A stretch of 64,000 nucleotides of DNA, taken from the NCBI RefSeq assembly GCF_013315695.1, contig NZ_CP054353.1, one strand, 5' to 3'. A program made the translations under genes and the position numbers. Below the pieces are notes generated by a model. That model did no database searches. It worked only from the letters and a program-made list of their open reading frames with translations, and was not told the origin of the DNA. This document shows positions 4,548-34,366 of the stretch, piece after piece. This DNA comes from Escherichia coli. GTDB lineage: Bacteria > Pseudomonadota > Gammaproteobacteria > Enterobacterales > Enterobacteriaceae. How positions within the stretch are numbered: the first letter of the stretch is position 1; each line of letters opens with the position of its first letter.

Positions 4548-5444
4548 TCAGTAACAGCAGTAGCGAATAAAATAAAAAAATACCGGAGCGGTGAAAATTA
4601 ATGAGTCAATCCTGTCAAGGAGTCCGCCATGTCCTGGTAATAGTTTTCCACTATCTTTAACACCAATATCTCGTTTGATGGCTGACATCACTACATCGCC
4701 GCAAAAACCACTTACCCCAATCAGTAACCCCGCCAATAATGCCTGCCAGGCGTTTAAGGGTGTCAATAACGGTCCAATGATCATCGACGCTATCATGGTG
4801 GTGATTACGCCGCCCATCAGACCTTCCAGTGTTTTTCCCGGGCTGACTTTGGGGACCACTTTTCTTCTGCCGCAGGATTTTCCCCATAAATACTGTGCAA
4901 TATCGTTTGACTCGGTTAATGCCAAAAGAAATAACACCAGTAACGCCCCGCCCTGGATATTTGTGGTTGGCAACATTAATAACCAGGCGGCATGACTCAA
5001 GGCGAAAACGGTCATTATCCAGCCACAAAAAATGGCACTCACGGTATGCAGAAAACCAGAGGGGTCACCCACTAAAACTCGCCAGGTGGCTAATATCAGA
5101 AACCCAGCCAAAGGTATAAATAACAGAAACAGCTCAAAGCAATTAAAACCGATAAGCAAATAGTTAAGAGGAATACCCCAATATAACCAACGCGGAAAAT
5201 GTACGGATATAAGCGTACAATATTCTTTCAATGCCAGAAAACTTATCAGCGCAAAAAACGTCAACGTCATCCAGCGTGGACCTGAAATCACCATTGAAAA
5301 ACAAATGACGATGCCCCACCAGGTACGAATACGTAATGTAACCTCACCCCCTTTTCCCTCCGGTAACCGCCATATCAGAAAACGGTTTATCAGCGTTGCT
5401 AAAATTAACAACGCGAAAAGTGTTGCCAGAGATTTTTCCAGCAT
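4548..5444 (-). CDS. ynbB: CDP-diglyceride synthetase (CdsA)-like membrane protein
   Basis: 298-aa polytopic membrane ORF; ATG at 5442-5444 overlaps the ynbA stop by 1 nt (operon coupling). Confidence 0.85.
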   Translation of the reverse strand: MLEKSLATLFALLILATLINRFLIWRLPEGKGGEVTLRIRTWWGIVICFSMVISGPRWMTLTFFALISFLALKEYCTLISVHFPRWLYWGIPLNYLLIGFNCFELFLLFIPLAGFLILATWRVLVGDPSGFLHTVSAIFCGWIMTVFALSHAAWLLMLPTTNIQGGALLVLFLLALTESNDIAQYLWGKSCGRRKVVPKVSPGKTLEGLMGGVITTMIASMIIGPLLTPLNAWQALLAGLLIGVSGFCGDVVMSAIKRDIGVKDSGKLLPGHGGLLDRIDSLIFTAPVFFYFIRYCCY

Positions 5445-6928: not shown

Positions 6929-7350
6929 CCTCGCGCATACAGCCGGGCAGTGACGTCATCGTCTGCGCGGAAATGGACGAACAGTGGGGCTATGTCGGGG
7001 CTAAATCGCGCCAGCGCTGGCTGTTTTACGCGTATGACAGGCTCCGGAAGACGGTTGTTGCGCACGTATTCGGTGAACGCACTATGGCGACGCTGGGGCG
7101 TCTTATGAGCCTGCTGTCACCCTTTGACGTGGTGATATGGATGACGGATGGCTGGCCGCTGTATGAATCCCGCCTGAAGGGAAAGCTGCACGTAATCAGC
7201 AAGCGATATACGCAGCGAATTGAGCGGCATAACCTGAATCTGAGGCAGCACCTGGCACGGCTGGGACGGAAGTCGCTGTCGTTCTCAAAATCGGTGGAGC
7301 TGCATGACAAAGTCATCGGGCATTATCTGAACATAAAACACTATCAATAA
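6847..7350 (+). CDS. insB: IS1 InsB frame (expressed as InsAB by -1 frameshift)
   Basis: 167-aa ORF in -1 frame relative to insA, ending ...HYLNIKHYQ. Confidence 0.9.
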
Positions 7351-19107: not shown

Positions 19108-19161
19108 ATGTCGCAAAATCAAGAAATTAGTAAGAAAGAACAATACAACCTGAACAAGTAA
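19108..19161 (+). pseudogene. ttcC: ttcA-like 5-prime fragment marking the prophage attR
   Basis: ATG TCG CAA AAT CAA GAA ATT AGT AAG AAA GAA CAA TAC AAC CTG AAC AAG TAA encodes [17 protein letters not shown], a diverged copy of the TtcA N-terminus ([17 protein letters not shown]) at 33431. Confidence 0.7.
19132..19157. repeat. Prophage attachment core, right copy (26-bp direct repeat)
   Basis: aagaaagaacaatacaacctgaacaa, identical to 33455..33480 inside the ttcA start. Confidence 0.75.
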
Positions 19162-19257
19162 GGGCAAAAATCACAACTCTCTGACTCATAAGTATTTTAC
19201 TTATTTTTCAATGTGTTAAATATCATCAGCGACAACAATAAGCTACGATAACCCACT

Positions 19258-19310
19258 CTTTTTTTGCCCCTTTTTTGCCCCTTTTGCAGCGCTTTGCCCC
19301 ATTTTTGCCA
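19258..19310. repeat. Cluster of four TTTTGCC(CC) direct repeats
   Basis: tttttgcccc ttttttgcccc ttttgcagcgc tttgcccc atttttgcca; between attR and the sitA regulatory region. Confidence 0.4.
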
Positions 19311-19421
19311 TCAACAATTTTCCTCATCAAGTCATTTCAAAGCCTAATAGGTGCCCTACTTTTTTCCTCAGTACCACGTCGCCAGCAGGAAACAACCTAA
19401 TCCCGGTTCGGATCTAAAATT

Positions 19422-19440
19422 GCTAATGATAATCATTTTC
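19422..19440 (+). promoter_or_regulatory. Fur box upstream of sitA
   Basis: gctaatgataatcattttc matches the 19-bp Fur consensus GATAATGATAATCATTATC at 16/19 positions. Confidence 0.6.
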
Positions 19441-19462
19441 ATTTTGTATTGCTTATGCTATA

Positions 19463-19484
19463 AAACATAGCCGTTGCTATGTTT
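19463..19484 (+). promoter_or_regulatory. MntR operator upstream of sitA
   Basis: Perfect palindrome aaacatagc-cgtt-gctatgttt, the MntR-box architecture, 33 bp upstream of the sitA ATG. Confidence 0.7.
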
Positions 19485-19516
19485 GTTCTAATTTTGCTCA
19501 CTATAGGTACTAAATT

Positions 19517-20431
19517 ATGTACTCAATAAAAAAAGTAACCATGCTCTTGGGGTGCCTCGCCCTCACCTGCTCGATCGCATTTCAGGCGAGTGCAACTGAA
19601 AAATTCAAGGTCATTACAACATTTACCATCATCGCAGATATGGCCAAAAACGTGGCTGGAGATGCTGCAGAAGTCTCATCCATAACCAAGCCCGGTGCAG
19701 AAATTCATGAGTATCAGCCTACCCCTGGCGATATTAAACGTGCGCAGGAGGCACAACTGATTCTCGCCAATGGTATGAATCTGGAATTGTGGTTCCAACG
19801 CTTTTACCAGCATCTTAATGGGGTTCCAGAAGTAATTGTCTCTTCGGGTGTGACGCCAGTAGGGATCACTGAAGGCCCCTATGAGGGCAAACCTAACCCC
19901 CATGCCTGGATGTCGCCAGATAATGCTCTGATTTACGTCGATAATATTCGTGATGCGTTGATAAAATACGATCCGGCAAATGCACAAACCTACCAACGTA
20001 ATGCCGATACTTATAAAGCCAAGATTACCCAAACCCTTGCCCCCCTGCGTAAGCAGATTGCTGAACTCCCTGAGAATCAGCGATGGATGGTCACCAGTGA
20101 AGGGGCTTTTTCTTATCTCGCACGCGATTTGGGGCTAAAAGAGCTTTATCTGTGGCCGATTAATGCCGATCAACAAGGCACGCCGCAGCAGGTACGTAAG
20201 GTTGTTGATATGGTGAAGAAAAATCATATCCCGGCAGTCTTTAGCGAGAGTACGATTTCCGATAAACCAGCGCGTCAGGTTGCGCGTGAAACCGGCGCGC
20301 ACTACGGCGGTGTACTCTATGTCGATTCCCTGAGCACAGAAAACGGCCCGGTACCTACGTATATCGACCTTCTGAAGGTTACTACCAGTACGCTGGTACA
20401 GGGAATTAAAGCCGGGAAAAGGGAGAAATAA
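19517..20431 (+). CDS. sitA: Mn/Fe ABC transporter periplasmic substrate-binding protein SitA
   Basis: 304-aa ORF with signal peptide, cluster-9 metal-binding family (SitA/YfeA/MntC-like). Confidence 0.9.
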
Positions 20432-21258
20432 TGATGCAATCTGCGGGCATTGTCGTTAATGATGTTACTGTCACCTGGCGTAACGGGCACACAGCACTGC
20501 GCGATGCATCCTTCACAGTACCAAGTGGATCTATTGCCGCTCTGGTTGGGGTAAACGGTTCCGGAAAATCGACGTTGTTTAAAGCGATTATGGGATTTGT
20601 GCGTCTGACCAGCGGAAAGATATCTGTTCTGGGTATTCCCACGCGACAGGCGCTACAGAAAAACCTGGTTGCCTACGTCCCTCAGTCAGAAGAGGTTGAC
20701 TGGTCATTTCCTGTACTAGTGGAAGATGTGGTGATGATGGGCCGCTATGGGCACATGGGTATGTTGCGTATAGCCAAAAAGAGGGATCGTCAGATTGTCA
20801 CCGATGCGCTGGAACGTGTCGATATGGTGGATTTTCGCCATCGACAAATCGGCGAGCTTTCCGGTGGACAAAAGAAACGCGTCTTTCTGGCGAGAGCGAT
20901 TGCACAGCAGGGTGATGTGATCCTGCTGGATGAACCTTTTACCGGCGTTGATGTGAAAACCGAAGCGAAAATCATCAGCCTGTTGAGGGAGTTACGCGCG
21001 GAAGGCAAGACGATGCTTGTCTCAACGCACAATCTCGGCTCAGTCACGACATTTTGCGATTATACGGTCATGGTCAAAGGCACCGTCCTGGCAAGCGGGC
21101 CGACAGACACCACTTTTACAGCCGAGAACCTGGAGCTGGCTTTTAGCGGCGTACTGCGCCATGTCACACTTAACGCCTCGGAAGAAAGCATTATTACTGA
21201 CGATGAACACCCTTTTGTGGCACATCGACCGTCAGCGGTGCAGAGGGAAGCAAGATGA
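20431..21258 (+). CDS. sitB: Mn/Fe ABC transporter ATP-binding protein SitB
   Basis: 275-aa ORF with Walker [13 protein letters not shown] signature LSGGQKKR and Walker B ILLDEP. Confidence 0.9.
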
Positions 21259-22112
21259 ACGTGCTACTGGAACCCTTCAGCTATGAATATATGCTCAATG
21301 CGATGTGGGTCTCGGCGATGGTCGGCGGTCTCTGCGCTTTCCTGTCATGCTATCTGATGCTAAAAGGCTGGTCGCTGATTGGCGATGCGCTGTCGCACTC
21401 TATTGTCCCGGGTGTTGCGGGGGCATATATGCTGGGGCTTCCGTTTTCTCTGGGAGCCTTCTTTTCCGGCGGACTGGCAGCGGGCAGCATGCTGTTTCTT
21501 AACCAACGCACTCGCTTAAAAGAAGATGCCATCATCGGCCTGATCTTCTCCTCCTTTTTTGGCCTGGGGCTGTTTATGGTGTCATTGAACCCGACATCCG
21601 TGAACATTCAGACCATCGTCCTAGGCAATATTCTGGCAATCGATCCGGCGGATATCCTGCAACTCACTATCATTGGCATTCTCTCGATCATCGTGCTTTT
21701 TTTCAAATGGAAAGATCTTATGGTGACCTTTTTCGACGAGAATCACGCCCGTGCTATTGGATTGCATCCGGGCAGATTAAAAATCCTCTTCTTCACCCTG
21801 CTGTCGGTTTCGACCGTTGCGGCGCTGCAAACGGTTGGTGCCTTTCTGGTGATCTGTCTGGTGGTGACTCCCGGTGCAACAGCATGGTTGTTAACCGATC
21901 GTTTTCCCCGCCTGCTCATAATTGCTGTAACTATTGGCAGTGTAACCAGTTTCCTCGGCGCGTGGGTCAGTTACTTTCTGGACGGCGCGACAGGTGGAAT
22001 CATCGTGGTGGCGCAGACACTGCTGTTTCTTTTAGCATTTGTATTTGCGCCCACCCATGGGCTTTTGGCAAATCGTCGGCGTGCGCATAAAGCGCTGGAG
22101 GATCGCTCATGA
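21255..22112 (+). CDS. sitC: Mn/Fe ABC transporter permease SitC
   Basis: 285-aa polytopic membrane ORF; start overlaps the sitB stop. Confidence 0.9.
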
Positions 22113-22966
22113 TGGCATTATTACTGGAGCCACTGCAGTTCACCTTTATGAGTCACGCACTGCTGATTTCACTGGTAGTTTCCATACCCTGTGCGCTGCT
22201 GTCGGTCTTTCTGGTCCTGAAAGGTTGGGCACTGATGGGTGACGCGATGAGTCATGCGGTTTTTCCTGGCATCGTGCTTGCCTGGATTCTGGGGTTACCT
22301 CTGGCTACAGGGGCATTTATCGCCGGAGTATTCTGCGCGGTGGCGACGGGATACCTGAAAGACAACAGCCGAATCAAGCAAGATACAGTGATGGGGATTG
22401 TTTTTTCTGGCATGTTTGCCGCAGGTCTGATCTTGTATATTGCAGTCAAACCAGACATACATCTTGACCATATTCTTTTCGGCGACATGCTCGGGGTAAC
22501 CATCGGCGATATAATCCAGACGATGATTATTGCCGGGCTGGTTACACTTGTTATTAGCGTAAAATGGCGGGATTTTTTGCTGTTCAGCTTTGATTATCAA
22601 CAGGCGCAGGTAAGCGGTTTGCATACGCGATGGCTGCATTATGGGCTGCTGTGCATGGTTTCCCTGACCATTGTGGCGACGCTGAAAGCAGTAGGTATCA
22701 TTCTCTCCATTTCTCTGCTCATTGCGCCTGGCGCCATTGCGGTACTCCTGACACAACGCTTTCATATTGCACTCCTACTGGCGACTGGCATATCGGTAAT
22801 AGTCTCAATGACTGGTGTTTGGCTGTCCTTTTTTATCGACAGCGCACCCGCTCCGACGATTGTCGTCTTATTCGCGGTTGTGTTCATCATGACGTTTACC
22901 GTTATCAGTTTCAACGCACGCACAAAGGGAAACGCTCATAGACAGGATCTGTTATCCCCCAATTAG
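22109..22966 (+). CDS. sitD: Mn/Fe ABC transporter permease SitD
   Basis: 285-aa polytopic membrane ORF paralogous to SitC; start overlaps the sitC stop. Confidence 0.9.
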   Translation: MMALLLEPLQFTFMSHALLISLVVSIPCALLSVFLVLKGWALMGDAMSHAVFPGIVLAWILGLPLATGAFIAGVFCAVATGYLKDNSRIKQDTVMGIVFSGMFAAGLILYIAVKPDIHLDHILFGDMLGVTIGDIIQTMIIAGLVTLVISVKWRDFLLFSFDYQQAQVSGLHTRWLHYGLLCMVSLTIVATLKAVGIILSISLLIAPGAIAVLLTQRFHIALLLATGISVIVSMTGVWLSFFIDSAPAPTIVVLFAVVFIMTFTVISFNARTKGNAHRQDLLSPN

Positions 22967-23077
22967 CACAACATCCGAGGGCAGCATTGTCCGCTAGTAC
23001 ACTGCAGTCCAGAAAGTCATGGGCGGACGTTGGGAGGAGGCGCTAATCCTTTCATACAAAAAATATGTAAAATCAAT

Positions 23078-23150
23078 AACGGCTGTAAATCATTCAATAC
23101 TCGCACTATCGGAAGTTCACCAGCCAGCCGCAGCACGTTCTTGCATACGA
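23078..23150. repeat. Diverged direct repeat, left copy (3-prime end of a small membrane-protein gene plus downstream sequence)
   Basis: aatcattcaatactcgcactatcg matches 24557..24580 at 22/24; similarity continues through cttgcatacgacgtg. Reverse strand encodes ...LALSIVIGGLVKLKPQTRRMQERAAAGW* with no start codon. Confidence 0.5.
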
Positions 23151-23417
23151 CGTGTCTGCGGTTTCAACTTCACCAGTCCACCAATCACGATGGACAGTGC
23201 CAAGACAGCACTAGCAAAAACAGGAAATTAGCAGTCTCAGCAGAACACCGACCAGACGGTGAAGAAACAAAAAAGGATACGCAAAGGGGCCGCAGTTCCC
23301 GATTGATAAAAAAGCCAGCTTATGCGCTTTTTTTTCATGTATTATTAAGTATTGGTTAGCGTCTTTTTAATCAGAACTTTAAAGACAAGCCATTTGTAAG
23401 AAAACCGACAGATTCGG

Positions 23418-24233
23418 TTGACAAGCAGGAGTAATACTTTGGACATAAGAAAAGATTTGGAATCAGTAGCCCAATATATAAGTAGACTGTTATCGATAGG
23501 GTACGAATTTAGCCGTTTTGATAAAGACTGGGTCCATTTAAAAAATGAAGAGGATTTTCGTTTTATTTCAAGAATACCATTTGCAACACGGAATAAAGTG
23601 GAAGCAGTATATGCGGAAGGCAGAGATATGGCACTTTATATGTCTGATGAGTTACTATCCATTAATAGTGATTTCAGTAAATTTCCAACGTTGACAGCTA
23701 TTATCGAAAGATTCAAGGACACTTGGGTTTATGGTAATTATGATTCGGAAGTGCCAAATATAGCTAAAAAAACATGCGAAGAAAATGCAGTTCAGCTTTG
23801 GTCTGTAGAACAGATGTGTTCCTTATTCAAAAAGCAAGAACAACTATTAGCAGCAGTACGTATCACATTGCAGATGCTACAAGATAGTGACCTATACAAG
23901 ATGGAGAATGGTTTACCTCTTATGAAACAAGAAGCTAATATTCATGTCAGTGGAATTTCCGGTTCTAGTATCAATATACATTCTTCAGGTGCTACGGCAA
24001 CTACTACGACAAATTATAATGAGCCCACAATATTTAATGAAATGATTGAGGCAATAAAATCGAAAAACTTTGATGGCGCGACAGAATCACACCTTATAGA
24101 TAATGTACAGGCACTGGCAGCCAGTCACCAAAGCGGCTGTTTTAAAGAAGCATATAAGGACTTTATTAATAATGTATCTGCACACATTACAGTATTTACT
24201 CCATTTCTTGCTGGCATATCATCTTTACTATAA
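23418..24233 (+). CDS. Orphan hypothetical protein in AT-rich islet (function unknown)
   Basis: 271-aa ORF from the track; no in-frame ATG near the 5-prime end, likely start TTG at 23439 with AGGAG 8 nt upstream; AT-rich codon usage unlike flanking genes; C-terminal low-complexity Ser/Thr stretch and hydrophobic tail. Confidence 0.5.
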   Translation: MTSRSNTLDIRKDLESVAQYISRLLSIGYEFSRFDKDWVHLKNEEDFRFISRIPFATRNKVEAVYAEGRDMALYMSDELLSINSDFSKFPTLTAIIERFKDTWVYGNYDSEVPNIAKKTCEENAVQLWSVEQMCSLFKKQEQLLAAVRITLQMLQDSDLYKMENGLPLMKQEANIHVSGISGSSINIHSSGATATTTTNYNEPTIFNEMIEAIKSKNFDGATESHLIDNVQALAASHQSGCFKEAYKDFINNVSAHITVFTPFLAGISSLL

Positions 24234-24556
24234 AATAAGTGACAGATACATTAATACATAACGAAAAATCTTTTTAGCTACTCATTCATATCAATAGTGC
24301 CCTACCATAGGGCACATTATTCGTGGAACTCGTTTATGACAAAAGAATTTTGATGGTCTGCCTGATGCAACAGATATAATTCTGGGAGTGTTGAGTAAGA
24401 GTATTCACCGGCGCTCAACACAAATGCCAGCAAGCACGAGAAAGAGCAGGTAAGCCTGAGTGTTCAGGAAATGTTTGAAAAGGCTAATATGTGGCTGGTT
24501 TCAGATTAAACGCCTTGAACCGTCATATTACTTAAGTACAATCCGCCTAGACTAGC

Positions 24557-24630
24557 AATCATTCAATAGTAGCACTATCGAGCGCTCGCCAGTCGAGCGC
24601 AATCATGCTCCTTGCATACGGCGTGCAGCA
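24557..24630. repeat. Diverged direct repeat, right copy
   Basis: aatcattcaatagtagcactatcg ... cttgcatacggcgtg; partner of 23078..23150. Confidence 0.5.
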
Positions 24631-24778
24631 TATCACAAAACGATTACGCCATGACGGACTGCAGGCTACTCAATATCTGGCTCGATTAGCGTATTGGCAT
24701 GATTTAACAGACCCCGGCGCTTATTCCCAGCAACCTGAAGCGGCACCTCTTCCTGTGTTGCGTTTACAACTCCCTTTT

Positions 24779-25072
24779 TCACCCACGATTAACCAACAGC
24801 CAGACCAGCAGACAAGCCACCACCGGCACAGAAAAATCCATCAGGCTTGCCACATCCCACACGCGCGGATCAAAACCACCCCACCACGGCATATTCATAC
24901 GCTTGCCATGCCCGAACATTTCAATCCAGCGATATTCTGCCTGGGTATGTTCACGAGCAATGAAGAACGTACAACCGGCTATCGCCCCGTAAGCCCAGTT
25001 TCCGGTAAAAAGACCAACCAGTACCTGCGCAGCCACAGCACAAAGTGCATGAAGGAAAGGTGTTATATCCAT
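24779..25072 (-). CDS. Small hydrophobic (probable inner-membrane) protein, function unknown
   Basis: ORF track 24779..25087; ATG at 25070-25072 preceded by AGGA; MDITPFLHALCAVAAQVLVGLF... with about three predicted TM segments; its C-terminus is homologous to the fragment encoded by the left direct repeat. Confidence 0.5.
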   Translation of the reverse strand: MDITPFLHALCAVAAQVLVGLFTGNWAYGAIAGCTFFIAREHTQAEYRWIEMFGHGKRMNMPWWGGFDPRVWDVASLMDFSVPVVACLLVWLLVNRG

Positions 25073-25148
25073 TTTCATCCTACCCAATAAAACGAGGCGC
25101 TCGGCCCCTTAATATTATTTAGACGCAAGCGTCGGTAATGACTCCAAC

Positions 25149-25652
25149 TTATTGATAGTGTTTTATGTTCAGATAATGCCCGATGACTTTGTCATGCAGC
25201 TCCACCGATTTTGAGAACGACAGCGACTTCCGTCCCAGCCGTGCCAGGTGCTGCCTCAGATTCAGGTTATGCCGCTCAATTCGCTGCGTATATCGCTTGC
25301 TGATTACGTGCAGCTTTCCCTTCAGGCGGGATTCATACAGCGGCCAGCCATCCGTCATCCATATCACCACGTCAAAGGGTGACAGCAGGCTCATAAGACG
25401 CCCCAGCGTCGCCATAGTGCGTTCACCGAATACGTGCGCAACAACCGTCTTCCGGAGCCTGTCATACGCGTAAAACAGCCAGCGCTGGCGCGATTTAGCC
25501 CCGACATAGCCCCACTGTTCGTCCATTTCCGCGCAGACGATGACGTCACTGCCCGGCTGTATGCGCGAGGTTACCGACTGCGGCCTGAGTTTTTTAAGTG
25601 ACGTAAAATCGTGTTGAGGCCAACGCCCATAATGCGGGCTGTTGCCCGGCAT
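25149..25652 (-). CDS. insB: IS1 InsB frame
   Basis: 167-aa ORF identical to the other InsB copies. Confidence 0.9.
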
Positions 25653-25846
25653 CCAACGCCATTCATGGCCATATCAATGATTTTCTGGTGCGTACCGGGT
25701 TGAGAAGCGGTGTAAGTGAACTGCAGTTGCCATGTTTTACGGCAGTGAGAGCAGAGATAGCGCTGATGTCCGGCGGTGCTTTTGCCGTTACGCACCACCC
25801 CGTCAGTAGCTGAACAGGAGGGACAGCTGATAGAAACAGAAGCCAC
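25571..25846 (-). CDS. insA: IS1 InsA
   Basis: 91-aa ORF identical to the other InsA copies. Confidence 0.95.
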
Positions 25847-25925
25847 TGGAGCACCTCAAAAACACCATCATACACTAAATCAGTAAGTTGGCAGCATCAC
25901 CCCCGGCGTTAAGGGGAGAGATAAG

Positions 25926-33430: not shown

Positions 33431-34366
33431 ATGCAAGAAAATCAACAAATTACAAAGAAAGAACAATACAACCTGAACAAATTACAAAAACGTCTGCGTC
33501 GTAACGTGGGCGAAGCCATTGCTGACTTCAATATGATTGAAGAAGGCGATCGCATCATGGTTTGCCTCTCCGGGGGTAAAGACAGCTATACCATGCTGGA
33601 AATTCTGCGCAATTTGCAGCAAAGCGCGCCAATCAATTTTTCGCTGGTGGCTGTTAACCTCGATCAAAAACAACCGGGCTTCCCGGAACACGTTCTGCCC
33701 GAGTATCTTGAAAAGCTGGGCGTTGAGTACAAGATTGTGGAAGAGAACACTTACGGTATCGTGAAAGAGAAGATTCCGGAGGGCAAAACCACTTGCTCAC
33801 TGTGTTCTCGTCTTCGTCGCGGTATCCTTTATCGCACCGCAACGGAACTGGGGGCGACGAAGATCGCGTTGGGTCACCATCGTGACGATATCCTGCAAAC
33901 GCTGTTCTTAAATATGTTCTACGGCGGCAAGATGAAAGGTATGCCTCCGAAACTGATGAGCGATGATGGCAAACATATCGTGATTCGCCCGCTGGCCTAC
34001 TGCCGCGAGAAAGATATTCAGCGCTTTGCCGATGCAAAAGCGTTCCCGATTATTCCGTGCAACCTGTGCGGTTCACAGCCTAACCTGCAACGTCAGGTGA
34101 TTGCTGACATGTTGCGTGACTGGGATAAACGTTATCCGGGGCGTATCGAGACGATGTTCAGCGCGATGCAGAATGTGGTGCCATCGCATCTGTGCGATAC
34201 CAACCTGTTCGATTTCAAAGGCATTACCCACGGTTCTGAAGTGGTTAACGGGGGTGATCTGGCGTTTGATCGCGAAGAGATCCCTCTACAACCGGCGGGT
34301 TGGCAGCCTGAAGAAGATGAAAATCAGTTGGATGAGTTACGACTGAATGTGGTTGAAGTGAAATAA
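33431..34366 (+). CDS. ttcA: tRNA 2-thiocytidine(32) synthetase TtcA
   Basis: 311-aa ORF with PP-loop SGGKDS and CxxC motifs; the att core lies inside its first 50 nt. Confidence 0.95.
33455..33480. repeat. Prophage attachment core, left copy (26-bp direct repeat)
   Basis: aagaaagaacaatacaacctgaacaa, identical to 19132..19157. Confidence 0.75.

Follow-up and report, generated by a model that had tools for sequence, protein, structure and literature searches.

A single-gene cargo module in a Rac-type prophage remnant of Escherichia coli, bordered by two copies of a structured non-coding element and probably encoding an anti-phage protein

The window, a 64,000-nucleotide stretch of Escherichia coli DNA (contig NZ_CP054353.1 of assembly GCF_013315695.1), contains a defective Rac-type prophage remnant of roughly 14 kb. 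Two attachment-site copies delimit it: a ttcC-type attR of a Rac-site prophage at 19108..19158 (minus strand), where window positions 19216-18918 match the K-12 Rac end and ttcC at 99.7%, and a ttcA-type copy at ~33438-33480; attR lies at ~19.1 kb and attL at ~33.4 kb, with sieB and recE between both copies. The position of attR places sitABCD and the module described here inside the prophage cargo (b) region, which has attR and sitABCD on one side and the tail-fibre end on the other. The left side of the module adjoins sitD, the last gene of sitABCD (22109..22966, plus strand, from the ORF list and the RefSeq annotation of identical DNA), and the right-hand limit of the region is an IS1 copy that truncates the prophage (25135..25902, minus strand, recognized by its InsA/InsB ORFs and the RefSeq label "IS1A family transposase", with its ends read from the sequence). 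As the first-pass annotation had indicated, the segment between them is AT-rich, with a GC content of 0.33-0.39 across ~23250-24450 versus ~0.5 in the flanks.

The cargo gene occupies 23439..24233 on the plus strand and encodes a protein of 264 residues (WP_000354607.1), as defined by the ORF list, RefSeq and an alignment of homologs. The earlier proposal of one ORF at 23418..24233 was right in that a single long frame ends at 24233, but RefSeq and the alignment of 29 homologs favor the TTG at 23439 as the start over that at 23418. A Shine-Dalgarno sequence, AGGAG (23427..23431, plus strand), can be read seven nucleotides ahead of this TTG, while no convincing sigma-70 promoter was found upstream of 23439. 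Sixty-four nucleotides past the stop lies a perfect 8-bp stem-loop (24297..24315, plus strand), already noticed in the first reading and recovered by a terminator scan, which makes it a candidate terminator of the cargo gene; since the scan found two such sites versus 1.7 expected, its position is the sole argument for this function. The E. coli copies of the gene, from 104 genomes at ≥99% identity, amount in essence to a single clone-like allele and, therefore, within-species conservation is uninformative on selection. A tblastn search of 50,697 phage and 72,556 plasmid records did not find the gene, and a full-text literature search with the protein accession returned no paper.

Downstream of the cargo gene, at ~24323..24509 on the plus strand, there is a frameshifted dinI-like pseudogene that had been missed initially. 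It is annotated by RefSeq as "DinI-like family protein" on 99.9%-identical DNA and shares ~75% DNA identity with the dinL region of phage phi80, so that homology to the DinI family is present and an intact frame is absent. In phi80, dinL is followed by the same repeated element that is found here (denoted E, see below) and by a convergent tail-fibre gene. Next comes the 3'-end remnant of a tail-fibre-assembly gene, tfa (24637..24778, minus strand), identified by its match to lambda (window 24624-24680 versus lambda 22577-22519, the 3' end of orf-194/tfa) and by the ES1 equivalent, annotated as a partial tail fiber assembly protein. The adjacent 97-residue membrane ORF (24779..25072, minus strand; phrog_1443, function unassigned) is found beside tail-fibre genes in >1900 E. 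coli genomes, and belongs to the tail-fibre block, outside the module. With moderate confidence, the region ~23013-24747 can be delineated as a b-region cargo module, made of one intact gene and the decayed dinI-like gene, with two copies of E around them. Phage accessory genes of this kind are covered by the "moron" concept of Hendrix. Indeed, the module is flanked by conserved phage blocks (the tail-fibre/tfa remnant and attR), its base composition departs from that of its neighbors, and its presence varies among related prophages: 103-105 genomes have the cargo gene, 137 of the ES1 type lack it, and further ones show a plain deletion. The view of the module as horizontally acquired single-gene cargo at a prophage spot, with repeats on both sides, is thus supported.

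The two repeats are two subtypes of one structured non-coding element of 89 nt, here named E. The first-pass annotation had described them as diverged direct repeats of about 70 bp, and repeat detection recovered them (23088-23132 and 24557-24601 at 76%; 23140-23154 and 24611-24625 at 93%), whereas a covariance model lengthened both to 89 nt. In the left copy (23078..23166, plus strand, 109.7 bits), which is of the lambda/e14 subtype, a 5-bp outer stem is combined with a loop of 38 nt that is invariant and, at 23128-23161, with a bulged hairpin of 13 bp. The right copy (24547..24636, plus strand, 67.8 bits) is of the HK446 subtype, being 85-87% identical to the HK446 and mEp234 copies, and the 3' arm of its hairpin is partly decayed. 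A census yielded 18,577 copies in 5408 of 5426 E. coli genomes, plus 206 phage records; carriers include lambda, phi80, HK446 and Stx phages, as well as e14-, Qin- and Rac-type prophages. In the model-based alignment, 93.2% of the cells are paired, against 24-50% in slid controls, and 15 of the 18 base pairs show compensatory changes; the 13-bp hairpin stem covaries. Cells with double changes numbered 133 versus 40.6 in shuffles, and none of 500 shuffles attained the observed value. The fold was recovered by RNAalifold on nine copies and on the model-based alignment, and was lost on a plain MAFFT alignment of 47 copies, which misaligns the bulge.

The plus strand, on which E and the cargo genes share their orientation, is favored as the folding strand by the excess of G-U over A-C pairs (153 vs 44). 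On this strand, about half of the copies terminate in a hairpin and T-run resembling a terminator: at least four T are found within the 8 nt after the hairpin in 40 of 84 distinct copies and not in the remainder, and the other strand has no T-run. In the left copy of the window, TTTCAA comes next after the hairpin. A scan of 22900-25200 against Rfam gave no family match, the hits being sub-threshold and at chance level (CssrB, 23 bits with a gathering threshold of 76; IS009, 20 bits with one of 117). In the records inspected, E is unannotated or called a "capsid protein" fragment by PGAP; a full-text search with its sequence returned no paper, and its function is not described in the sources searched. 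The invariant loop was also considered as a Pin/Hin-type crossover site; its imperfect palindrome, TTCAATA-N7-TATCGAA, does not fit the 12+2+12 layout of such sites.

The surroundings of E in other phages and prophages reveal a recurrent slot. A conserved segment of ~320 bp upstream of the cargo gene (23013..23335, plus strand), defined by its identity to other cargo loci, includes, besides the left copy of E, a stretch that resembles an attP arm. It is 89% identical to a segment preceding a type II restriction-modification (R-M) system in strain B27, and 81% identical to one preceding a DUF4145 gene in strain S56. Within it, 23015-23161 matches lambda 24308-24162 at 86%, and 23158-23333 matches, at 85%, sequence beside the ssrA-type attP of phage LLS. 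Lambda itself has a full E at 24,162-24,251, on the leftward strand, between ea31 and ea47; a second copy, reduced to the hairpin, immediately follows the stop of tfa, and ea47 is thus flanked in a like manner. In K-12, the Qin copy of E is located at 1,632,481-1,632,568. Elsewhere (HK446, phi80, Chris1, e14-like prophages), E immediately follows the 3' end of the last late gene or that of the pin invertase gene, and the cargo beside or between its copies includes ea47 in lambda, ynfT-ydfK in Qin, type II R-M (REase_II, E=2.8e-233), DUF4145, an HTH+ImmA pair and PD-T4-3 (E=2.6e-140); loci L042, L096 and L114 are two-copy arrays. From these contexts, E is taken to mark the junction between late operon and cargo, as a predicted conserved boundary element. 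Because the slot at this junction holds such varied genes elsewhere (ea47, R-M, PD-T4-3, DUF4145), the two repeats of the window are regarded as boundary elements and not as target-site duplications.

The 264-residue protein is made of an N-terminal helical domain (residues 1-160), a disordered linker rich in Ser, Asn and Ile (163-193) and a C-terminal three-helix module with a hydrophobic tail (197-262). In the AF2 model (mean pLDDT 83), residues 1-160 are all-helical with pLDDT >90. The N-domain carries the motifs IRxDF, W-HLKNxEDF, Y..GRD.A, YPTL and LYK.E.G, and in the homolog alignment the glutamates E38 and E55 are invariant and E156 nearly so. The C-terminal module ends in the conserved hydrophobic tail SAHITVFTPFLxGLxxLL, the last 19 residues, also conserved, having a mean hydropathy of 1.53. 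The close family consists of 85 clusters across gamma-proteobacteria, in which a length of 261-267 residues and 29 invariant columns are maintained at 32-76% identity (Pseudomonas, Vibrio, Serratia, Klebsiella, Marinomonas and others). Homologs stand alone, as solitary genes, in P4-like satellites and an ICE, as well as in another prophage region and a Vibrio islet. That the ORF fits no characterized family, as first stated, holds for profile searches of Pfam, PHROGs and NCBIfam, and neither the ORF nor its family matched the PDB by sequence; no known effector domain, nuclease or other catalytic signature was detected in the protein.

Profile relatives are numerous: 1388 cluster representatives at E≤1e-3, many of which align to residues 1-160 only (when the N-domain alignment was used for a word-indexed profile search, only the close family was recovered). 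In hundreds of them the N-domain is found ahead of TIR, CHAT, SEFIR, PNP or REase effector domains, the partners counted among 50 fusions scanned being TIR_2 (6), TIR (4), CAP12-PCTIR_TIR (2), CHAT (2), SEFIR and PNP_UDP_1. PADLOC matches in relatives (bSEFIR, PDC-S35, PDC-S66, ThsB, RT-TIR, chat) are all confined to the C-terminal parts, and Foldseek neighbors of the model carry the annotations "Restriction endonuclease" and "ADP-ribosyl cyclase". In the protein itself, residues 170-258 match PADLOC PDC-M14B weakly (E=0.0017, 16 bits); of 10 further homologs one matched this profile (E=0.0064) and nine did not, and no conserved neighbor that could be the component A partner of PDC-M14 was present in the window or in the contexts of five other homologs.

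Taken together, the 264-residue protein is probably a single-gene anti-phage defence protein of the abortive-infection type, combining sensor and effector. In this scheme, an infection cue would be perceived or relayed by the N-domain, and the C-terminal module would carry out the response, possibly acting at the membrane. An anti-phage or abortive-infection cargo had been suggested from the outset, and this role, as a proposal derived from sequence, is now the best supported one, because the N-domain is fused to TIR, CHAT, SEFIR, PNP and REase domains in relatives, and because the conserved upstream segment precedes R-M and DUF4145 genes, and E copies precede PD-T4-3, at other loci. Alternatively, the protein might serve the prophage otherwise, through counter-defence, as a regulator of lysogeny or induction, or as a lysogenic-conversion factor. 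Lambdoid b-regions do also hold cargo unrelated to defence, such as sitABCD in the window, dinI/msgA-like and cold-shock genes and an acetyltransferase, and the absence of a known effector domain in the protein would suit this option. However, the partners of the N-domain are immune-effector types and the homologs recur as solitary genes in the variable regions of satellites, ICEs and prophages, and a non-defence role is considered unlikely, although it retains some weight.

As for how such modules move, the mosaic junctions suggest that they would be swapped, stacked and lost via inter-phage recombination in short conserved sequences and in tfa/tail-fibre homology. Enzymes of the Red/RecET type would be the likely agents, through relaxed homologous recombination, and neither transposition nor site-specific insertion is indicated; Red-beta recombination between lambda and Rac or Qin on short diverged homology has been experimentally shown (PMC3945230). 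A different notion is that E is itself an active recombination site, either an attC-like fold of single-stranded DNA or the target of a Pin/Fin-type invertase, with a dedicated recombinase arraying cargo cassettes. This would account for a structure conserved over a variable stem sequence with a bulged base, for arrays in direct orientation with one cargo unit per element (as in the loci named above), for hairpin-only copies and mosaic junctions at the hairpin end (the homology with lambda stops at 23161), and for the serine invertase gene that adjoins E in the e14-like and Chris1 loci. Nevertheless, many phages with E, lambda and HK446 among them, have no invertase, and junctions also occur outside E (the right one at ~24748, and a deletion by microhomology at locus L024). 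An integron-type integrase is missing as well: no integrase ORF is present at 20-28 kb, and the hairpin arms, which read CCGCAG.../...CTGCGG, lack the R'/R'' core sites (RYYYAAC / GTTRRRY). Considering, in addition, that an RNA element better accounts for the invariance of the 38-nt loop and for the frequent T-run, an active recombination site is decidedly improbable, and relaxed homologous recombination at a boundary element remains the preferred reading.

Two further accounts concern the ORF and the origin of the repeats. According to the first, the ORF is a decaying, functionless passenger on a mosaic DNA segment, as its company (a dinI-like pseudogene, a tfa remnant and an IS1-truncated prophage) and the single near-identical allele of E. 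coli might suggest; this is very improbable, given an intact frame preceded by a Shine-Dalgarno sequence, and a length and invariant columns that are kept across genera. The second account is that of the first-pass annotation, which took the repeats for 3' ends of a small membrane-protein gene, the left one as a start-less fragment and the right one tied to the 97-residue ORF, and explained them by a site-specific or duplication-generating insertion. The repeats are indeed direct, they stand on both sides of AT-rich DNA, and some genomes have just one copy in the interval from sitD to the tfa remnant. However, the repeated unit is non-coding, with base-pair covariation and ~18,500 copies in E. 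coli genomes; the frame of the left copy runs into attP-arm-like non-coding DNA and is unconserved among copies, and the right copy lies ~143 nt beyond the stop of the 97-residue ORF (24779), with the tfa remnant between them. Identity between the two copies is just ~75%, and each represents a different subtype. The comparison with empty sites that had been recommended yielded no isogenic empty site in the collection: the 137 one-copy genomes of the ES1 type have flanks only 82-85% identical and are, for this reason, not empty sites of this insertion. Moreover, the stretch 24520-24747, which covers the right repeat and most of the tfa remnant, is confined to the same ~103 ORF-bearing genomes, which places the right junction near 24748 and not at the repeat, and the IS1 transposase is the only recombinase gene in the 20-28 kb ORF list. 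Insertion of a cassette into the 3' end of a membrane gene with duplication of its target is, hence, scarcely credible, and of the proposed cassette signature what stands is the horizontally acquired cargo between repeats.

The readings of E and of the protein could be integrated in a more ambitious concept: that E, as folded RNA or single-stranded DNA, is the recognition or expression platform of a new cassette system of enterobacterial temperate phages, insulating and mobilizing cargo (much of it anti-phage) at the end of the late operon, and that the 264-residue protein represents a new immune-sensor family, its short helical C-terminal module acting as a novel cell-killing effector. As a whole, this concept is speculative and rather improbable. 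If the protein is protective, it would add a defence family, whose ~160-residue N-domain, without a Pfam or PDB match, is present in ~1400 cluster representatives and would offer a good handle on infection sensing by single-protein systems. E, in turn, is an unannotated structured element with strong covariation that phage lambda itself carries, and provides a simple landmark for prophage cargo slots (~3 per E. coli genome), which hold validated systems (R-M, PD-T4-3) together with many unknown genes.

Several known systems invite comparison. AbiTii has an alpha+beta fold with a highly conserved glutamate in its N-terminal ~180 residues, which are fused to variable C-terminal effector domains, originally described as HEPN (Anantharaman et al. 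2013, PMC3710099). The 264-residue protein resembles the AbiTii/AbiJ-NTD modular proteins of that work in that an N-domain of ~160-180 residues and unassigned activity precedes swappable effectors in a single polypeptide, and several Foldseek neighbors of its model are annotated as "AbiTii domain-containing" (E 8e-8 to 0.1). In contrast, its N-domain is predicted to be all-helical, and the partners are TIR, CHAT, SEFIR, PNP, REase or a short helical tail, with no HEPN in the 50 fusions scanned. The Pfam AbiTii profile had no match at E≤0.1 in the ORF or in 99 family members (29 + 50 + 20), and the UniRef label "AbiTii domain-containing" on one homolog was not reproducible with Pfam on these members.

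With the integron attC site, E shares an imperfect bulged hairpin, a structure kept over stem sequence and the separation of cargo in direct arrays; unlike attC, it has no IntI integrase nearby, and its long invariant loop and frequent T-run suggest an RNA element. P4-like satellites contain homologs of 55% identity as solitary genes in variable regions (Serratia and Pseudomonas), the Pseudomonas region also holding beta and cII homologs. Nonetheless, the Serratia homolog lies at the primase-proximal end and not in the psu-int hotspot defined by Rousset et al. 2022 (PMC9122126), and the locus of the window is a lambdoid prophage. PD-T4-3 (GIY-YIG) and the McrA of e14, which have no sequence or domain kinship with the 264-residue protein (itself without a nuclease signature), are found, like it, right after an E copy, by the pin or tail-fibre end of e14- or lambda-type prophages, as solitary genes of atypical composition. 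PD-T4-3 was reportedly validated by experiment in the selection across the E. coli pangenome from which the PD-T4 systems take their name. Finally, while the cargo gene is unrelated to the b-region genes of lambda, its slot also holds sitABCD and its prophage is truncated by IS1, the module has positional counterparts in ea47, ea31 and ea59, leftward accessory genes of the tfa-to-att slot that are dispensable and variable between phages.

Within this window of E. coli DNA, the gene under study sits in an IS1-truncated, Rac-type lambdoid prophage of about 14 kb, given that window 19216-18918 is a 99.7% match to the ttcC-bearing end of the Rac prophage in K-12, that a second, ttcA-type copy is found at about 33438-33480, and that sieB, recE and one IS1 lie between them. 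The sitABCD genes (19517-22966), adjoined by uspF/ompN, fall inside this prophage, with the ttcC-type attR some 300 bp away (19108-22966), so the iron/manganese transporter is itself b-region cargo of this Rac-type prophage. The module (about 23013-24747) likewise lies in the b-region, flanked by attR and by the end of the late operon that holds the tail-fibre genes. The 97-aa membrane ORF next to it (24779-25072; phrog_1443) is widespread: over 1900 genomes of E. coli have it beside tail-fibre genes.

The AT-rich character of the segment was borne out (GC of 0.33-0.39 across about 23250-24450 vs. about 0.5 outside), as was the perfect 8-bp hairpin at 24297-24315. The first-pass annotation correctly saw a single long ORF with its stop at 24233, but its start at 23418, giving about 265-271 residues, is not favoured: the RefSeq start of WP_000354607.1 is the TTG at 23439 (+ strand), AGGAG stands 7 nt before it, and M-x-I/V-R-x-D is found at the equivalent start in 28 of 28 aligned homologs; therefore, the protein has 264 residues, not 271. 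Downstream, RefSeq annotates a frameshifted dinI-like pseudogene (about 24323-24509), and the order of dinI-like gene, repeat and convergent tail-fibre gene at this right side is that of phi80, whose dinL carries a LexA box.

The diverged direct repeats flanking the ORF are real (76% identity over 45 nt and 93% over 15 nt). They had been taken to carry the 3' end of a small membrane-protein gene, which does not hold; comparison with other genomes shows both to be members of one family of structured elements of about 89 nt, here called E, the left copy (23078-23166) being of the lambda/e14 type and the right one (24547-24636) of the HK446 type, its 3' arm decayed. Nine copies went into a covariance model, which then retrieved 106 copies in 100 loci. 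Across 84 distinct sequences, in an alignment fitted to the model and hence biased toward the structure, 93.2% of cells were paired, 15 of the 18 base pairs showed compensatory changes, and 133 double-change cells were observed vs. 40.6 in shuffles, a value reached by none of 500 shuffles; sliding the partner columns lowered pairing to 24-50%. Compensatory variants are also visible in the raw sequences (for example, CCGCAG/CTGCGG, CCGCAA/TTGCGG, CCGCCG/CGGCGG and GCGGTAC/GTACCGC). Briefly, E consists of an outer stem of 5 bp enclosing an invariant 38-nt sequence (AAATCATTCAATACTCGCACTATCG...) and a bulged 13-bp hairpin with a conserved loop (TTGCATAC). There are more G-U than A-C pairs (153 vs. 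44), so the folding strand is the + strand of the window, which is also that of the cargo genes. On this strand, at least four T occur within 8 nt past the hairpin in 40 of the 84 copies, while none of the 84 has such a run on the opposite strand. On the simplest reading, E would act as RNA and close with a terminator-like hairpin, a role that we infer.

With the 89-nt query, 5408 of the 5426 complete genomes of E. coli yielded 18,577 E places (median of three per genome), and E was present in 206 phage records. In lambda, a full copy lies between ea31 and ea47 (24162-24251; 4658-4746 of the record used, L015), window 23015-23161 being 86% identical to lambda 24308-24162, and a hairpin-only copy (22573-22606; L015 3074-3107) directly follows the stop of tfa (orf-194); thus, ea47 is bracketed as the window ORF is. 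About 80 bp from the full copy, between ea47 and ea31, the record carries a misc_recomb feature (24389-24390; L015 4890-4891). Elsewhere, E is found directly past the 3' end of either a pin-type invertase gene or the last late gene (HK446, phi80, Citrobacter phage Chris1 and e14-like prophages), in K-12 Qin upstream of ynfT-ydfK-pinQ (1632481-1632568, unannotated) and, as a partial copy, near the K-12 Rac end. With few exceptions, E places carry either no annotation or a wrong one, as 'capsid protein' fragments. PGAP puts such pseudogene fragments on non-coding parts of E, as at 7050-7130 of the strain S56 locus (L012) and at several other places, a label that is probably an annotation artefact. 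A strongly covarying element shared by lambda and almost all genomes of E. coli thus goes without annotation, or is mislabelled, in the records inspected; it had no match in Rfam, and a full-text literature search found no paper with its sequence.

The module was found in 103-105 of 5426 genomes, always at the same locus and with at least 99% identity. Insertion between pre-existing repeats is rejected, as is the site-specific or duplication-generating recombination that the first-pass annotation proposed, because ORF-bearing genomes alone have the right E together with most of the tfa (tail-fibre-assembly) remnant (24520-24747). The predicted one-repeat site does have a counterpart in 137 genomes (ES1 type: sitD, one E and a tfa remnant), but these differ from the window in their flanks (82-85% identity only); in another allele, a simple deletion at microhomology has taken out E and the tfa remnant. 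Since genomes lacking the ORF match the window only from about 24748 onward, the module entered as a mosaic block of larger size, whose junctions lie near the end of sitD and inside the tfa/97-aa region, not at the repeats, whose subtypes differ. The exchange would have relied on recombination over short diverged homology, a process that experiments have demonstrated between lambda and both Rac and Qin, via Red-beta (PMC3945230). Window 23158-23333 is 85% identical to the stretch of phage LLS that borders its ssrA-type attP and 'tmRNA pseudogene', which suggests that part of the module stems from a phage with another integration site, namely from its att-proximal arm.

The region upstream of the ORF (about 320 bp, 23013-23335) recurs in e14-like prophages, being 89% identical to that preceding a type II R-M system in strain B27 and 81% identical to that preceding a DUF4145 gene in strain S56. 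In both loci the cargo starts 240-250 nt past E, as does ea47 in lambda. Cargo genes gave matches to REase_II (E-value 2.8e-233) and PD-T4-3 (E-value 2.6e-140), and one viral contig presents the array E, HTH and ImmA-like pair, E, PD-T4-3 and pin, a protease gene preceding the first E in a second one. Genes stacked between E copies in viral contigs (L042 673-1461 and 2258-3147; L114 1-1047 and 1679-3661) include the HTH and ImmA-like metallopeptidase pair, a trypsin-like protease with weak PADLOC matches to profiles of the RT-Protease/LmuA type, a Cys-rich protein of 262 aa and, without a PADLOC match, a protein of 253 aa, all possible further defence candidates.

Homologs of the ORF were solitary in all five contexts, with no conserved partner gene: in the variable region of a Pseudomonas P4-like element, together with beta and cII homologs; beside the primase gene of a Serratia P4-like satellite; between the replication genes and Q of an E. 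coli lambdoid prophage; after traC in a Klebsiella ICE; and in a Vibrio chromosomal islet. The Serratia gene lies at the opposite end of its satellite from the P4 psu-int hotspot defined by Rousset et al. (PMC9122126), so that hotspot is not claimed for it. The gene itself was not found in 50,697 phage and 72,556 plasmid records.

The close family (85 clusters from Pseudomonas, Vibrio, Serratia, Klebsiella, Edwardsiella, Marinomonas and others) is constant in length, with 29 invariant columns. The AlphaFold2 model (mean pLDDT 83) shows a helical N-domain (residues 1-160, pLDDT >90) joined to three C-terminal helices (197-262) by a disordered linker rich in Ser, Asn and Ile (163-193). With their alternating hydrophobic/Gly/Asn/Gln look, the linker (window 23925-24017; SGISGSSINIHSSGATATTTT) and the equivalent 'INI..NFQG.LGNV..STV.QNL' stretch of related proteins may resemble amyloid-type signalling motifs. 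A hydrophobic tail, conserved and with a mean hydropathy of 1.53, closes the C-terminal module, which gives a weak, collinear PADLOC match to the candidate PDC-M14B and might execute the response at the membrane. An exhaustive profile search yielded 1388 representatives at E-value ≤1e-3, many of them longer and matched over residues 1-160 alone. Across 50 of the longer representatives, the C-terminal parts included TIR_2 (6), TIR (4), CAP12-PCTIR_TIR (2), CHAT (2), SEFIR and PNP_UDP_1, and PADLOC profiles (bSEFIR, PDC-S35, PDC-S66, ThsB-type TIR, RT-TIR and CHAT) matched only there.

The initial observation was largely right, and the anti-phage or abortive-infection role guessed for the gene is its best-supported function, in view of these TIR, CHAT, SEFIR and PNP parts. 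Most likely, the ORF encodes a single-gene, sensor-plus-effector defence protein of the abortive-infection type, housed in the cargo slot that E marks in a lambdoid prophage, and the 264-residue protein would act in defence. Among its Foldseek neighbors are proteins annotated as restriction endonuclease and as ADP-ribosyl cyclase, along with several labelled 'AbiTii domain-containing'. A profile test did not support membership of AbiTii; the likeness lies in the architecture, the relatives of the protein following a logic like that described for the N-terminal domains of AbiTii and AbiJ (PMC3710099).
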